Origin: Escherichia phage 348Ecol098PP
Length of the DNA: 64,000 nt
Sequence record: OR062947.1
Reading direction: 5' to 3' (one strand)
Each line of letters opens with the position of its first letter. The stretch's first letter is position 1. Under the pieces are notes generated by a model. That model saw nothing but the letters and a program-made list of their open reading frames with translations. It ran no database searches and was not told the origin of the DNA. Positions 5,050 to 51,476 of this stretch are shown piece by piece. A program made the translations under genes and the position numbers.

Positions 5050-6333
5050 TTATTCATCTATAATAATTTTAGGCAATTTAACACCGAGTAAAACAGACAA
5101 GTCTGAACGTCCTGCCATTTTATCCATGTCCCCACCATCAATTATTCTCGCTTCTTTTTCGTCTTTTGCTACTGTGTAAGGATTTGCTGATAAAGCATAT
5201 CTAACCAATAATCCAATAGACGGTTGCAAGCTTTCTGGATCAACTACAACTTTAAATGCACCAACATGTTCCGGGTCATCTAAATCTACTCCTTCAGTGT
5301 ATGGAGCATAAAAGATGGACCCTACAATTTCTTTTTCGCCGATATTTTCTACAACACCCACAATAACATAATCTAACGGACTGTTGGTATCGCAGTAAAG
5401 AGGTAATCCATTTGCCAAGAATCCATAAGCATTTTGTGAAAGATACTTGTCATCTTCTGGCTTATGTTTTAACCAACCAGAAGCAGCAAGAATAGCAGCT
5501 GCACGAGCTGAGGCTACACAAAACGTTGCAGTATAAGTTGTCTCTTTTTGAATGTGTGATACCATTTCACACACCATTCGATATAATGAACGACCTGCTT
5601 CTGGAGCGGATGCATAGCTCAAGTCAATAAATCCAGTGTCAGTAATTCCAGTAACTTTATAACGTTTCGATACAGTAATTAAAGACTGAAGAATATCTTT
5701 ATTAATTTCATCAGCCATTTCAGTAGCAAGCAAATCTTCTAAGAAGTTAGGGGCATCAAATCCATTCGCTTCTAAATCTTGCGCTAATTCGACCGTGAGG
5801 CCAGTTTTAAGTTTACGAGATTTGACTGAAGTTTGCCATTTATTAATCTGGAATCTTGCATCAGAAATTTCGCTATCGGAGCTTTCAAATTTGCTTGTTA
5901 CCGCTGCATCTGAAAATAACCGTACCTTTAAATGAACGACTGCAATTTGAAGAGCTAATTCTAGATCACTTTCTTGAATATCTGCAAATGGTGTATCTTC
6001 TAACACCTTATAGACGATATTATTATATTTGAAAAAATCACCTTTATTTAGTGTGACTTTTGATTCTTCTGTGAGCTCAGTAATTTTTTCTCGGTCTACA
6101 TATCCAACTTCACCCGCATAAGTAGCACCAGTTTTAAATGTGAATTCATTATCTGGGTTAAGATATTTGATACCATAAAAAGCAGCAACAGGCTGATTAG
6201 TTCTTTGTGTTGCTACAATGTCAGAATATATTAATTTAGTCGTAGCGCGAGTCAAAGCAACGAGATTTGGGCGACCAATTGAGTTGCTAGTAGACGTTGT
6301 AGATTCACGCAATAATTTTTGGATTTTACTCAT
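5050..6333 (-). CDS. 24: Capsid vertex protein gp24
   Basis: 427 aa, same length as T4 gp24; synteny upstream of gene 23; late promoter at 6361-6368. Confidence 0.9.
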   Translation of the reverse strand: MSKIQKLLRESTTSTSNSIGRPNLVALTRATTKLIYSDIVATQRTNQPVAAFYGIKYLNPDNEFTFKTGATYAGEVGYVDREKITELTEESKVTLNKGDFFKYNNIVYKVLEDTPFADIQESDLELALQIAVVHLKVRLFSDAAVTSKFESSDSEISDARFQINKWQTSVKSRKLKTGLTVELAQDLEANGFDAPNFLEDLLATEMADEINKDILQSLITVSKRYKVTGITDTGFIDLSYASAPEAGRSLYRMVCEMVSHIQKETTYTATFCVASARAAAILAASGWLKHKPEDDKYLSQNAYGFLANGLPLYCDTNSPLDYVIVGVVENIGEKEIVGSIFYAPYTEGVDLDDPEHVGAFKVVVDPESLQPSIGLLVRYALSANPYTVAKDEKEARIIDGGDMDKMAGRSDLSVLLGVKLPKIIIDE

Positions 6334-17954: not shown

Positions 17955-18719
17955 TTAATTCATAAACCCATCGTCAAATGGTGAATTTTGTCTACCACGG
18001 TTGTTAACTACTACATACGGCTCAACGTATTCACTTGCCTCTGAATTGATTTGCTCAACTTCAGAATATTCATCGATATTAATGTCATGGATACCGTCAA
18101 GATTTCTAACAGGGTTAAGTTCCAAGTCACTAAATTCAGGTATATTGATACCTTCATTTTTCTGAAGCACCGGATTGATTTCTTCGCCAGAGTAAATAAA
18201 CTTGCCTGCAGTAATTTTACGAATCGCATTTTTACCTACTTGATAGAATGGGTCATATGGTTCAACCCAGTTAATCTCAAACAAACTGTTGTCCATTGGG
18301 AAGTATATTAAATCACCTTCCTTGGGCTCCTGATTGTTGACCTGGTGTTTGAAAAGACCCGGGTTAATAGATAATGTAACTTCGTCTTGAACTTGCATTC
18401 CGAAGTTGCTGAAGAACGATTTCGCTCCTTCATAACCTTCAAAAGAGTTCAGATATGCAGCAAATTTCCATGCTTTAGTAAATTTATTTTTAAGGTCCTC
18501 ACCAAAGATAAGGTCCACAGCAACATATTCACGTGGAACATAAAAACATTCAATACCGCGCATCTGTATGCTTTCTGCCACTAGAACATCGGCTAATGTC
18601 TGACTATTCTCATAATTATTAAAATTGACAAATGGATTGAGGATTTCAGTCTCATTTGTCTGAGAATACCCACCACGATTTTCTAGCTTGGCGAAAAGAT
18701 TTTTATCATAAGTTGCCAT
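17955..18719 (-). CDS. 14: Neck protein gp14
   Basis: 254 aa, synteny. Confidence 0.85.
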
Positions 18720-18720
18720 A

Positions 18721-19647
18721 TTAACCTACCAAAATACCTGCAGGAGGGTCCAGTAAATATAACTCTTCTCGTAAAGCTTCTTTCTCTAAACGAGCTTCTT
18801 CAATTAATCGAACACCATCAACAGTGACGCCACCAGGTAACATCATACCTTGATGTTTAGCAAGAATTTGTCCATTAAGCTCTTTAGCTAATGCAGTTGC
18901 ATAATCTTTAACCCAGCGGTTGTTATATGCGCCTTGTTTAGTTGCAGGATCTTCACCAACTCGACGTCCTACCAAATTATGGTCTGGATTATCATAACGT
19001 TCAGAAATAGACCATGAATCACGAGGACCAACCTGACCGTACCCTACTGTATTTCCTACCATCTTATGGGTCTCGATATAAGAGCGAACATACGATTCAA
19101 CGATAATGACATCTTTCTGTCTAAAGTTACCCATTACTTTTAATTGCTCGTTTGCAGAGTTAAACCAAAAATCTGGAAGAGGAGCAATCATATCTTGAAG
19201 CATACCCATATAAGATACTAATTGAGAATAATACCCGAGGTCAGCGCCAAAAGCGTTCGGACCGTAGAATTTACCACAATTACTACCCATACCACCTGAA
19301 ACACCTGCCATTCCTAAAAGGAAATCAGTGAACCATGGATAAGTTGCATTACCATCCATTGAAGTAATAGAGCCAACATTTGTTCTTATAATTCTTGTTA
19401 CAGCAAATACGTTAGAACCGCGCATATCAAATACGCCGTGACGGTATTTTTCTTCGTCATCAACAAAAAATACATGGAAACCTTTATTCAACCCGTCAAA
19501 ATGGTATTCGCCATAAAGTTCTAACGCTCGTGAAATACAATCATAAATTTGGTCTGTAGTTAATTCAACATTTACAATAGGAGCGCCTAAACGACGTAAT
19601 ATTACGTCCTTTAATTCTTTAGGGTTTTGTGCATTATAACCTGACAT
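18721..19647 (-). CDS. 13: Neck protein gp13
   Basis: 308 aa, synteny. Confidence 0.85.
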
Positions 19648-38891: not shown

Positions 38892-39203
38892 ATGAAAACT
38901 TATCAAGAGTTTATCGCTGAAGCTACTAAAGCCGATAAAAATTTTATTATTAACACCACCGGTCCGTTAGATGATGAATACGCTAATGCTATTATTAAGT
39001 CAATTTCTAATCAAGGCGTTGAAGTAACAAATTTCGAATATAAGAAAAATGATACTTATATGATAATTAGTATCAAAAAAGGTTCAAAGGCTAAAATTAA
39101 ATCTGCATTTGGTGTTATGCGAGTCGACCAAATCGATAACCACGATTTTTCACAAACAGGGGCCAAACGCCAAAACACCATTTCTTCTAAAGGCATAAAA
39201 TAA
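38892..39203 (+). CDS. Internal-protein-like, capsid-targeting leader MKTYQEFIAE
   Basis: 103 aa; N-terminal 10 aa identical to the remembered T4 IP capsid-targeting sequence ending ...IAE (gp21 cleavage context); early promoter upstream. Confidence 0.6.
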   Translation: MKTYQEFIAEATKADKNFIINTTGPLDDEYANAIIKSISNQGVEVTNFEYKKNDTYMIISIKKGSKAKIKSAFGVMRVDQIDNHDFSQTGAKRQNTISSKGIK

Positions 39204-40438: not shown

Positions 40439-40954
40439 ATGAATATTTGTTTAGGCAGTACAATTCCTAAGGGTTACGTAATTGATGTCACTACTTGGGA
40501 AAATGACGGCGACAACTATAAAACCAAAACATTATTTGGTGTAGAAGAGCATGAGCTCCAACAGTTTAAATATCTCTTGAAGAAATTTAAGAGTCGTCAT
40601 TCTAGCACTAAAGCTGAACGTTACTGTGGTAATACACCATTCAGTGATTGCTCGCTTTTAATCTATGAATACTTGGTTGAAGGACTGTTCTCAGACCAGC
40701 TTTATCCAGAATTCATTAAAAAGGTCTTTGGTATTGAAGTCGACCTTGGTGATAAATCTGAAGAAGACGAAGCCCGCGTATTCGACCTGTTCTTTGTGAA
40801 AGGCGATGAGGTATCTCAAGGACTTATTGATATTCTTGGCTATGCTTCTGAATACTACGACTATGATTTCTTGCGTGTAGTTGAACGTGTTGAATTCGCT
40901 TATATTGAAGAAGAAATTGTTTTGCCGACTGTTAAAATGATTGATTTGCTTTAA
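40439..40954 (+). CDS. Hypothetical protein
   Basis: 171 aa ORF. Confidence 0.5.
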   Translation: MNICLGSTIPKGYVIDVTTWENDGDNYKTKTLFGVEEHELQQFKYLLKKFKSRHSSTKAERYCGNTPFSDCSLLIYEYLVEGLFSDQLYPEFIKKVFGIEVDLGDKSEEDEARVFDLFFVKGDEVSQGLIDILGYASEYYDYDFLRVVERVEFAYIEEEIVLPTVKMIDLL

Positions 40955-41033
40955 GAATTATGTGTTATTATTAATTCATACCCTCTATTACCAAAGGTGC
41001 TCTAAAGTGCCTTTCATAATAGAAAGTTATTTA

Positions 41034-41107
41034 GGCCCTGTAGCTCAACGGTTAGCAGCAGTCCCCTCATAAGGGAAAGGTTACCAGTTCGAATCTGGTC
41101 TGGGTCA
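41034..41107 (+). tRNA. tRNA with anticodon CAU (Ile2/Met type; T4 tRNA-Ile uses CAU)
   Basis: Hand-folded cloverleaf: acceptor GGCCCUG, T-arm ACCAG-UUCGAAU-CUGGU, anticodon loop CUCAUAA; one acceptor mismatch and a weak outer anticodon-stem pair; no encoded CCA. Confidence 0.55.
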
Positions 41108-41113
41108 TATATT

Positions 41114-41189
41114 CGAGGCATAGCTCAGAAGGAAGAGCAAGGACCTTCTAAGTCCTAGGTCGTAGGTTCGATCCCTACTGTCTCGACCA
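41114..41189 (+). tRNA. tRNA-Arg (anticodon UCU)
   Basis: Hand-folded canonical cloverleaf: acceptor CGAGGCA/UGUCUCG, D-arm GCUC-AGAAGGAA-GAGC, anticodon arm AGGAC-CUUCUAA-GUCCU, T-arm GUAGG-UUCGAUC-CCUAC, encoded CCA. Confidence 0.8.
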
Positions 41190-41207
41190 ACTTTAAGTGA
41201 GGAAAAT

Positions 41208-41552
41208 ATGAAAGGCAATATTTATCTGGTAGTTCATGATTTAACGTTTTATTTTAACGAATATGATACAGTTATTTCTCATCGATTGATTAATTCGCTG
41301 TATCAGCATGCCGATTACATTTATGTTCAAAATGAATTTGGACATTGGAAGTTCATTAAAAACCGTTCTGGGTTAACTAGTTTTGAATACTTTGATCGCA
41401 AAGACCTTTTAAACGAAATCCCATTGCAACATCGGTTCCAGAAACGCGAATCATTATATTATTGCCGTCATATACCAAACGCCGAATGTGTTAATGAAGC
41501 GATTAATCTATGGCGTCGGCGTCGAGAGCAAATTGATGATATGCCAAAATAA
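41208..41552 (+). CDS. Hypothetical protein within tRNA region
   Basis: 114 aa ORF between tRNA-Arg and structured RNA region. Confidence 0.45.
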   Translation: MKGNIYLVVHDLTFYFNEYDTVISHRLINSLYQHADYIYVQNEFGHWKFIKNRSGLTSFEYFDRKDLLNEIPLQHRFQKRESLYYCRHIPNAECVNEAINLWRRRREQIDDMPK

Positions 41553-41559
41553 GAAGCCG

Positions 41560-41812
41560 GGTCGCTACCGGTAAGTCGTCGGACTGATGTTCCCTGAGTA
41601 AGGACTGGTCTTAATAAATCTTTATGATTTGTTAATATCCCCTTACATCACAGCAGAAACGGCGCACAGAATTATCGATTCGAGGAAATATCTTTGCCGT
41701 AAGCCGAGTAGCGTTTTTGACGGAACGTTCGGATATGGTCGAGATATGGCCTTTTAAAAATATTGAGTAGCGTCAACTACTTAATAACCGGGTTCGAATC
41801 CCGGCGTTTCGT
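41560..41812 (+). ncRNA. Candidate stable small RNA(s) with tRNA-like 3' end (comparable to T4 RNA C/D species)
   Basis: ~375 nt ORF-free region; canonical T-arm CCGGG-UUCGAAU-CCCGG at 41788-41804 with 7-bp acceptor pairing (41721-41727 with 41805-41811) but no canonical anticodon arm; followed by terminator. Confidence 0.35.
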
Positions 41813-41851
41813 ACAAACACTTACTTAGTAGGTGGAAACCCCGACAAGGTA

Positions 41852-41884
41852 TATAGCCCCTTCCGAAAGGTTGGGGCTTTTTTG
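41852..41884 (+). terminator. Rho-independent terminator after tRNA/small-RNA region
   Basis: AGCCCCTTCCGAAAGGTTGGGGCT + TTTTTT; same module as 57113-57145. Confidence 0.65.
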
Positions 41885-41892
41885 TATAAATA
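41885..41892 (+). promoter_or_regulatory. Late promoter TATAAATA upstream of the 208-aa CTS-bearing gene
   Basis: TATAAATA 36 nt upstream of ATG 41928. Confidence 0.55.
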
Positions 41893-41927
41893 TAGTAAAC
41901 AATAAACCTACTTTCTAAGGACCGTCA

Positions 41928-42554
41928 ATGTATACTTTTAATGAATTTTTAGCCGAAACGGAAGTAATCACCGAAGCCGGTGTACGTATGACAAAAGAGA
42001 AATGGCAAGCTGCTTACGATGCTATTTCTGGTACAAAAACTAGTACAGAGTTTTTCAAAAACGTTCAAGCCATGTACGGTATCGACACTTCCAGCCAAAA
42101 AGAATATTACAGAGCTTCTAAAGCATTCAAAGATATTGTTAGTGGTGGTGTTTCTGCTAAATCGGGTTCGCCTAAAGTAAAACCTGCTCCTACCATTCCT
42201 AAACCTGCGACCCCTAAAGCAATAGCAAAACCTGAGCCTAAGCCGGAAGTAAAAGCAACTCCTAAAGCTCCTGCTCTTAAGTTTGATACTTCTAGCCTGG
42301 AAAAAAAATATAAACAACTATCTTCGCTTGTTCGCGATATTGAATCCGATACATCTTCACTCGTTCGTGAATTCAATAGTCTTCGTAATGGCCAACATAT
42401 CAACAACCTTGATACCCCGGACCTTTATCGTCTTTATTTGACTATCGAAGGTTTGAAGTACACTCAACCACTTCACGACGCGATTAAAGAAAAACTTCGT
42501 CAGGCAGGTCGTTTGGCTGCTGACGCTGCTCAGTATGCAAAAACTCGTAAGTAA
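41928..42554 (+). CDS. Internal-protein-like (large), leader MYTFNEFLAE, proline/lysine-rich linker
   Basis: 208 aa; CTS-like N-terminus; PKVKPAPTIPKPATPKAIAKPEPKPEVKATPKAP linker; TATAAATA late promoter at 41885-41892. Confidence 0.55.
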   Translation: MYTFNEFLAETEVITEAGVRMTKEKWQAAYDAISGTKTSTEFFKNVQAMYGIDTSSQKEYYRASKAFKDIVSGGVSAKSGSPKVKPAPTIPKPATPKAIAKPEPKPEVKATPKAPALKFDTSSLEKKYKQLSSLVRDIESDTSSLVREFNSLRNGQHINNLDTPDLYRLYLTIEGLKYTQPLHDAIKEKLRQAGRLAADAAQYAKTRK

Positions 42555-42555
42555 A

Positions 42556-42585
42556 GAATGGGGACTTCGGTCCCCTTTAGGGGGT
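42556..42585 (+). terminator. Rho-independent terminator
   Basis: GGGGAC-TTCG-GTCCCC then TTTAGGGGG. Confidence 0.55.
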
Positions 42586-42606
42586 CTATAACTTACTGAA
42601 AAAGTT

Positions 42607-42635
42607 GTTTACTTCTTCCCTAGATGTGTTACTAT
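42607..42635 (+). promoter_or_regulatory. Early promoter GTTTAC / TGTTACTAT
   Basis: GTTTAC 42607-42612, 17-nt spacer, TACTAT 42630-42635. Confidence 0.55.
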
Positions 42636-42663
42636 AGACCTATCAAAACACGTGGAGAATATT

Positions 42664-42969
42664 ATGAGTCTTTACACTGAACTGAATAAAAAATCTGAAG
42701 AATCCGCTGAAACTATTTTTAAAAACGTGCAAAAGCGTATTTTAGAAAAGATGTATAACACTGCAGCTAAAGGTGAAAAATCTTGCCGGTTTCCGATTAG
42801 GTGTTCTTCAGATTTATGCGCAAATACTATTGAATGGCTGGAAAGTGAAGGTCTTACAGTAGAGAAAAACCCGGCGACTTCTATTGACGGCGAATCATAT
42901 ATTAGTATTTCTTGGGATAAACCACGTATGAATGAAGGACACTACAAGTTGTTAAGTTGGAAAAATTAA
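42664..42969 (+). CDS. Hypothetical protein
   Basis: 101 aa from MSLYTELNKK with SD GGAGAA; early promoter upstream. Confidence 0.45.
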   Translation: MSLYTELNKKSEESAETIFKNVQKRILEKMYNTAAKGEKSCRFPIRCSSDLCANTIEWLESEGLTVEKNPATSIDGESYISISWDKPRMNEGHYKLLSWKN

Positions 42970-51161: not shown

Positions 51162-51476
51162 ATGAAAACGTATAAAGAATTTATTGCAGAATCCGCCAAC
51201 CAACGCGTTGAAGGTGGTTATATTTGGATTGAACAAGTTGAGCCACCGAGCCGCACTTCTACAGGTAAATGGAAAATTACTGTTGACGGTCCTGGCGGTA
51301 AACGTAGGACTCTTAAAGAAATTAATGGGTACTATGAAGAAGCTCTTTCGGATGCAGGAACTTACATGATGCAAATCATGATTAAAAACCCTGAAAACCG
51401 TTTTGCAGCTAAAGTCTTCCGTCGTATTGGTAATAAACTTTATGATGCATACTCTAAAAACTTCCCTAAAGAATAA
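51162..51476 (+). CDS. Internal-protein-like, leader MKTYKEFIAE
   Basis: 104 aa; CTS-like leader; early promoter 51101-51130. Confidence 0.6.
   Translation: MKTYKEFIAESANQRVEGGYIWIEQVEPPSRTSTGKWKITVDGPGGKRRTLKEINGYYEEALSDAGTYMMQIMIKNPENRFAAKVFRRIGNKLYDAYSKNFPKE

Follow-up and report, generated by a model that had tools for sequence, protein, structure and literature searches.

The DNA analysed in this work (the window) is a stretch of 64,000 nucleotides from Escherichia phage 348Ecol098PP, a T-even phage of the genus Mosigvirus belonging to the JS09 / mar005P1 type. The order of its genes (3, 1, 57A, 57B, ipI-type genes, tRNA.4-tRNA.2, tRNA-Met, tRNA-Arg, ..., frd.3, e.6, e.5) is the same as in RB69 and T4. 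The gene studied here was located at 41928..42554 on the plus strand, where an open reading frame of 208 codons starting with the leader MYTFNEFLAE had been recognized in the original prediction. A Shine-Dalgarno sequence, AAGGA, can be read directly at 41917..41921 (plus strand), 6 nt ahead of the ATG. The encoded protein (208 aa, 23.1 kDa, pI 9.5) belongs to PHROG 2280, and its sequence is that of WLY86529.1 from Escherichia phage 348Ecol098PP. The 1.1 kb region around the reading frame shares 98-98.5% identity with many genomes of the JS09 / mar005P1 type. WLY86529.1 and its cluster mates are called 'hypothetical protein' in all records and source names examined.

Stable RNA genes lie upstream of the gene. 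A homolog of rnaD (~41549-41668, plus strand), identical to T4 in 91 of 107 aligned nucleotides, is followed by an rnaC homolog (41675-41813, plus strand), in which 138 of 139 nucleotides are identical to T4. An Rfam scan of the interval 40900-42700 returned two tRNAs only; it was silent on the rnaC and rnaD homologs because Rfam has no model for them. In several GenBank records of Mosigvirus phages, e.g. that of TU01, small 'hypothetical protein' coding sequences are drawn over rnaC and rnaD (the equivalent in the window is a 42-aa reading frame at 41629-41757), and these coding sequence calls are probably spurious. The TU01 record also places tRNA-Met (5436-5507; 41034-41107 in the window) on the minus strand. 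ARAGORN and Rfam put it on the plus strand, like the neighbouring tRNA-Arg, and the strand given for TU01 was probably annotated in error. In T4, tRNA-Arg and rnaD are immediate neighbours; in the window they are separated by a 114-aa reading frame (41208-41552, plus strand) homologous to RB69ORF150c. This reading frame, whose stop codon overlaps with the beginning of the rnaD-like sequence, looks like an insertion into the transcription unit of the stable RNAs.

The unit comprising the tRNA, rnaD and rnaC genes ends in a terminator hairpin with a T-run at 41855..41884 (plus strand; stem 41855-41878), which has a folding energy of -16 kcal/mol (z = -3.25) and is conserved downstream of rnaC in T4 and RB69. 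This terminator insulates the 208-codon reading frame from transcription upstream. It is abutted by an exact match to the T4-type late promoter motif recognized by gp55, TATAAATA, at 41885..41892 (plus strand), with a putative transcription start at ~41898-41900. The original prediction had placed this motif 36 nt upstream of the gene; the motif is indeed there, but its spacing to the ATG is 35 nt. In the window TATAAATA occurs 17 times, compared to 8.5 ± 3.1 in shuffled sequences, and none of 100 shuffles reached 17. The unambiguous late-type sites of the window lie 25-36 nt ahead of a co-oriented start codon, a range into which the 35 nt of the present site fits. The arrangement was compared in nine lineages representing eight genera (the window, JS98, CBH8, Kosakonia 305, fHe-Yen9-01, PG7, Marfa, CIP9 and RB69). 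ATAAATA was found 27-38 nt ahead of the ATG in all nine, with a chance probability of 0.002-0.03 per locus. The sequence between hairpin and ATG has diverged among these lineages, yet the position of ATAAATA was kept. A generic scan for sigma-70 promoters and terminators, which does not extend to T4 late promoters, was uninformative at this locus. No time-course transcriptome of a Mosigvirus was found in the literature, and according to a 2026 preprint neither time-resolved RNA sequencing nor mass spectrometry had been carried out for Mosigvirus AV110.

Just 3' of the stop codon there is a second hairpin, GGGGACTTCGGTCCCC (GGGGAC-TTCG-GTCCCC), at 42560..42575 (plus strand). Its folding energy of -12 kcal/mol (z = -0.81) is unexceptional alone. 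A hairpin was found at the equivalent place in JS98, CBH8, Kosakonia 305 and Marfa, and in JS98 the pairing is kept through changes on both strands (GGAGAC...GTCTCC). From this sequence comparison, GGGGACTTCGGTCCCC is the probable 3' end of the late transcript. With the terminator and the abutting late promoter upstream and this hairpin downstream, the reading frame therefore looks like a self-contained unit between two hairpins. The region 42560-42635 (plus strand) continues from the hairpin into GTTTAC (42607-42612), N17 and TACTAT (42630-42635), an early-type promoter for the next gene, combining terminator and early promoter in a PeSL-type cassette; a like arrangement follows the homologs in JS98, CBH8 and Marfa. 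PeSL cassettes are proposed mediators of gene shuffling in T4-like phages.

An early-type promoter is located directly upstream of T4 ipI, ipII and ipIII, and also of other reading frames of the window that carry a capsid targeting sequence (CTS; GTTTAC...TAnnAT at least for those at 38892, 39265 and 51162). Within 120-150 nt upstream of the three T4 genes or of the window's other CTS reading frames, TATAAATA was not found. The difference between late and early-type promoters indicates that regulation of the 208-aa gene is unlike that of the genes presumed to be related to it in function.

The leader MYTFNEFLAE (41928..41957, plus strand) was aligned to the leaders of T4 IPII and IPIII. In T4, the first 10 residues of IPIII (MKTYQEFIAE) are enough for loading proteins into the prohead core (PMC9026906; PMC3012670); residues 4 and 7 of this CTS serve targeting and residues 8 and 10 serve processing (PMC9026906). 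The prohead protease gp21 cleaves after L/I-x-E (PMC9026906; PMC3012670). The leader of the 208-aa protein has the features of a T4 CTS, namely an aromatic residue at position 4, Phe at position 7 and an L-x-E end, and these are conserved across the family: F4 and F7 correspond to the targeting positions and L8-A9-E10 to the gp21 motif. The following segment, TEVITE (41958..41975, plus strand), contains a second candidate gp21 site, I14-T15-E16, and at this place [LIV]-x-E followed by A or S recurs in most homologs. Cleavage at one or the other site is predicted to expose T11 or A17 as the mature N-terminus, with computed values of ~21-22 kDa and pI 9.7-9.8 for the product. From the match to the experimentally defined CTS of T4 IPIII we infer that MYTFNEFLAE is a capsid targeting sequence.

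The pattern M-x-x-[YF]-x-[ED]-[FI]-[LIV]-x-E was found 6-7 times in the six-frame translation of the window, where 0.005-0.01 occurrences are expected. All occurrences are on the plus strand, 2-16 codons past an in-frame stop, and belong to the reading frames at 38892, 39265, 41928, 50077, 50837, 51162 and 51502. The six reading frames other than the one at 41928 are 86-109 codons long. With respect to these, and to T4 IPI (95 aa) and IPII (100 aa), the earlier description of the 208-aa protein as twice the size of classical internal proteins is justified, but it does not hold for T4 IPIII, which has 193 aa. When 14 family members were compared, conservation was highest in the leader (mean pairwise identity 58%, compared to 35% for the N-terminal and 26% for the C-terminal domain), and all four functional CTS positions are kept even in relatives with only 20-25% overall identity.

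The structure of the protein was predicted by AlphaFold2 using an alignment of 10 sequences, which yielded a mean pLDDT of 71.7, with low confidence for the leader. A small N-terminal three-helix domain (residues 19-74; 41982..42149, plus strand; pLDDT about 85), carrying the conserved motif ERMTKxKWQ, is followed by a disordered polycationic tract rich in Pro, Ala and Lys (residues 75-116; 42150..42275, plus strand) with a net charge of +7 and a pLDDT of 32-35 for residues 75-112. The C-terminal part (residues 117-208; 42276..42551, plus strand) is predicted to be a three-helix bundle (pLDDT about 88) and has the conserved motif FDTS...LRNGQHxNNLxTPDLYxLYLxIExLKYTQP. This helical / disordered / helical-bundle succession agrees with the N-terminal globular part, linker and helical C-terminal domain that had been proposed from the letters, and the Pro/Lys-rich linker given there, PKVKPAPTIPKPATPKAIAKPEPKPEVKATPKAP, corresponds exactly to residues 82-115.

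Searches of Pfam, NCBIfam and PDB sequences with the whole protein, with each domain and with divergent relatives returned nothing significant. The sole profile match was compositional, between the tract and the TonB spacer (E = 0.002; 18 bits at a cut-off of 315). Fold comparison of the domains gave generic helical-bundle matches only, with no informative fold, and no known anti-defence or enzymatic effector domain or fold was recognisable. Since the searches were empty apart from the TonB-spacer match, the protein is unlikely to be an enzymatic effector, and its domains rather resemble binding modules. The tract was present in all 15 family members analysed, with a length of 19-46 aa, a net charge of +3 to +9 and a P+A+K content of 39-80%. 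T4 internal proteins are basic and DNA-binding, and in the head only their lysines touch DNA phosphates (PMC9026906; PMC3012670). Taking into account these contacts and the invariably positive net charge, the tract is plausibly, by analogy, a DNA-contacting polycation rather than a mere spacer.

The protein matched PHROG 2280 ('unknown function') over its full length (E = 1.3e-57; residues 1-203 against positions 1-178 of the 178-position profile). By tblastn, it was found in 138 phage records, including phages of the genera Mosigvirus, Dhakavirus, Winklervirus, Kanagawavirus, Tegunavirus, Karamvirus, Marfavirus and others; among the matches listed all were 'hypothetical' and none was an obvious T4-type Tequatrovirus. 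A profile search of 1.84 billion cluster representatives found 14 clusters only, which shows that the family is narrow. Its synteny is constant, the gene lying between the tRNA/rnaC-rnaD cluster and e.8/e.6, and the pI of all 15 members is in the basic range (9.0-9.8). Members from Mosigvirus hardly vary except in the tract, where most of the differences (2-residue indels and substitutions) are concentrated; this near-invariance of the remainder points to purifying selection.

More distant relatives differ in entire domains. CIP9 and P0023 kept the leader, the N-terminal domain and the tract, and have an unrelated C-terminal domain; in P0026 the leader, the N-terminal domain and the P/A/K tract are followed by a third kind of C-terminal domain. 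None of these alternative C-terminal domains of CIP9, P0023 and P0026 had a Pfam match. Conversely, in P0025, P0027 and gp153 of Yen9-01 the tract and the C-terminal domain type were kept behind different N-terminal parts. At least three types of C-terminal and two or three types of N-terminal modules were seen. These swaps among the relatives indicate that the two folded parts are evolutionarily separable. The original prediction had suggested separable targeting and effector parts: the separability of the domains is borne out by the swaps, but the targeting signal is the 10-residue leader and not the N-terminal domain.

In the Yersinia phage fHe-Yen9-01 (locus 1501-2616) two tandem paralogs, gp154 and gp153, both match PHROG 2280 over the full length and have different N-terminal parts; their sequences point to a duplication followed by module exchange. 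The copy in RB69 (locus 18429-18991, minus strand) is divergent and has the canonical leader MKTYAEFLTE; a frameshift divides it into ORF149c and ORF148c, which suggests that at least this stock can do without the gene. In the SSE1 copy (locus 595-1203) an extra T is present in a T-run of the leader, and the annotated protein starts with MNFLAE, without the CTS. The frameshifts in RB69 and SSE1 could be real inactivations or sequencing errors.

Direct evidence for the presence of the protein in virions comes from an ortholog. MAR005P1_00015 (VCU44362.1) of phage vB_Eco_mar005P1 is 99.5% identical to the 208-aa protein, with one substitution in 208 residues, and its GenBank entry bears the note 'confirmed structural protein by MS'. 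ESI-MS/MS of CsCl-purified mar005P1 virions detected five proteins only, MAR005P1_00015 being one of them; the other four were the tail sheath, the prohead core protein, the major capsid protein and the packaged Alt ADP-ribosyltransferase (PMC6563131). This shallow analysis shows presence in the particle, and was made on the ortholog and not on the phage of the window. Absence from capsids, which had been named beforehand as an observation that would speak against an internal protein, is thus contradicted by the MS data on this close ortholog. A full-text search of the literature found no paper on the virion proteome of fHe-Yen9-01. Searches for JS98 or the Kosakonia cowanii phage in connection with mass spectrometry likewise brought up no virion proteome from a phage bearing the family, and searches with accession numbers and locus tags gave no match.

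Taken together, we propose, with a probability of about 0.8, that the 208-aa protein is a late-expressed, CTS-loaded internal head protein of JS09-like Mosigvirus phages, belonging to a family that has not yet been annotated as such. In the envisaged pathway, RNA polymerase modified by gp55 would start at TATAAATA late in infection and produce a monocistronic mRNA of ~0.67 kb between the rnaC terminator and the hairpin at 42560-42575. As judged from the match to the CTS of T4 IPIII, MYTFNEFLAE would direct the protein to the scaffolding core while the prohead is being assembled; gp21 would then remove the leader after LAE10 and/or ITE16 to yield a basic protein of ~21-22 kDa. The processed protein would then stay in the DNA-filled head; the MS data on the ortholog document its presence in the virion, and its location inside the head is predicted. 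The P/A/K tract and the basic domains may lie against the packaged DNA, and at infection the protein may leave the head together with the DNA, in the manner of the T4 internal proteins. The two small helical domains probably act as binding modules rather than as enzymes. Injection and an effector role of the 208-aa protein are put forward here as hypotheses. What is new is the assignment, as the databases have no internal-head label for the family; the class, T-even internal head proteins, is already known, and diverse CTS proteins in these phages are expected.

Of the roles that such a protein could have, one is that of a helper in head assembly and DNA condensation like T4 IPIII, i.e. an abundant basic component of the core that contributes to the assembly rate and to neutralisation of DNA charge and has no part to play in the next host. 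The size, which is near that of IPIII (208 vs 193 aa), and the basic character are consistent with such a role, and loss of IPIII in T4 halves the rate of head assembly and lowers the burst size (PMC9026906). The window has no IPIII homolog, the tract is conserved in composition and not in sequence, as expected of a counter-ion, and the purifying selection is strong. The protein was also detected in an MS run that yielded only five proteins, but detection is no proof of abundance because the low-copy Alt was detected in the same run. The suggestion that the protein replaces IPIII where IPIII is missing was rejected, as p000v, G2469, Marfa and Clarke_MM3 carry both it and genuine IPIII homologs. 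The family is thus not simply a replacement of IPIII, and we regard the pure helper role as possible but somewhat unlikely. Another role, which would add a specific function to the packaging model rather than compete with packaging, is that of an injected counter-defence effector comparable to T4 IPI*, in which, once ejected, one of the helical domains would bind and inactivate a nuclease or some other immunity protein of the host, such as a type IV enzyme directed at the modified cytosines of these phages. T-even internal proteins are seen as an injected defence set, and IPI* inhibits GmrSD (PMC3012670; PMC4122927). The exchange of N- and C-terminal domains and the tandem paralogs of Yen9-01 are patterns common in arms-race genes, and the family occurs in genera reported to have arabinosylated cytosine DNA (PMC13326640), although this may merely mirror phylogeny. 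On the other hand, similarity to a known anti-defence protein and a catalytic or inhibitor fold were both lacking, and the folded domains are nearly invariant in Mosigvirus, with no sign of rapid diversification; on balance a counter-defence function is unlikely. Extending this thought, the family could be a natural modular carrier, in which the CTS loads the protein, the tract rides on the DNA and the swapped helical modules retarget it to host factors, perhaps to immunity proteins acting on arabinosylated cytosine DNA. We consider this distinctly improbable; if true, the protein would be a counter-defence factor with two heads and a tether to the DNA, in contrast to IPI* with its single domain.

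The two remaining explanations question the place of the protein rather than its role. As the MS data show presence in purified particles only, the protein might reside elsewhere in the virion, as a capsid decoration or a neck or tail protein, and the resemblance of its leader to a CTS might be inherited sequence without a targeting role. Extended Pro-rich spacers do occur in surface-exposed proteins too, and the tract gave the weak compositional match to the TonB spacer, but no segment of the family is better conserved than the leader, in which all four CTS positions are kept, and searches of PHROGs and Pfam revealed no resemblance to Hoc, to Soc or to a family of tail proteins. These observations make a location outside the head interior very unlikely. 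It is even harder to believe that the protein is no virion component at all but an abundant cytoplasmic protein of the late period that came along in the CsCl purification. Non-structural proteins do turn up at low levels as contaminants when virions of related phages are analysed by deep MS (PMC13119998); in the mar005P1 run, however, the four other proteins were all genuine virion proteins, an impurity would have needed a better score than dozens of true structural proteins, and packaging is predicted independently by the CTS leader.

The T-even internal proteins are the first protein cargo that the phage delivers into a new host, and to our knowledge IPI* is the only one among them with a known target. 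The present family occurs in at least eight genera of T-even phages of Enterobacterales, many of which are used for phage therapy, and it is physically present in virions. Interpreting it as a CTS-loaded head protein puts the annotation right and assigns a role that can be tested to the largest internal protein of these phages. The features that seem worth following are its modularity with two domains, the conservation of the polycationic tract and the late promoter of its own. The modular build could also serve the delivery of foreign proteins, as has already been done with the CTS of IPIII.

Comparison with known systems places the protein in a class defined by its leader. T-even internal proteins have been described as diverse injected defence proteins with only the CTS in common (PMC3012670). 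The other CTS reading frames of the window and of RB69 share with the 208-aa protein the type of leader, the strand and a location in the hyperplastic regions around ipI and e/denV, but differ from it in being single-domain proteins with unrelated bodies. When the leaders were removed, no similarity was detected among the seven CTS proteins of the window. The CTS reading frames of the window and of RB69 other than the 208-aa one fall into PHROGs 2667, 7673 and 3499, which are annotated as 'internal head protein', and into PHROG 3966. Three of those in the window belong to PHROGs with the 'internal head protein' name; those at 51162 and 51502 belong to PHROG 3966 of 'unknown function', despite their canonical MKTY.EFI.E leaders. 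The likeness of the tract to the Pro-rich spacer of TonB is one of composition only (P+A+K 55-80% in most members, net positive). In composition the tract also resembles the Lys/Ala/Pro-rich DNA-binding tails of the type found in the C-terminal domain of histone H1.

The T4 protein IPI* is the paradigm of counter-defence by a small CTS-loaded protein that is processed and injected, and which inhibits the type IV restriction enzyme GmrSD. It shares this loading route with the model proposed here, but its 76 residues form a compact alpha/beta fold (PMC3012670), whereas the 208-aa protein is predicted to be all-helical and two-domain and is 2.5 times larger. No sequence similarity was found between the 208-aa protein and T4 IPI. 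With T4 IPII and IPIII, homology beyond the leader was considered and rejected, as BLASTP and hhalign aligned the leader region alone (residues 2-26 in the comparison with IPIII). The bodies of T4 IPI, IPII and IPIII had no homolog anywhere in the window; in tblastn, IPIII matched leaders only.

The closest functional analogue of the 208-aa protein is T4 IPIII (NP_049735; PHROG 5341). Both proteins begin with a 10-residue CTS that ends in the gp21 motif (MKTYQEFIAE in IPIII, MYTFNEFLAE in the 208-aa protein), both are basic and packaged in the virion, and they are similar in size (193 and 208 aa). The two differ in that IPIII has no disordered P/A/K tract, and in their assignment to PHROG 5341 and PHROG 2280, respectively. 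They also differ in the setting of the gene: ipIII lies beside gene e and has an early-type promoter, whereas the gene of the 208-aa protein lies between rnaC and e.8 and has a late promoter. Membership in the IPIII family was rejected, as the mature proteins have no homology and the PHROGs are different.
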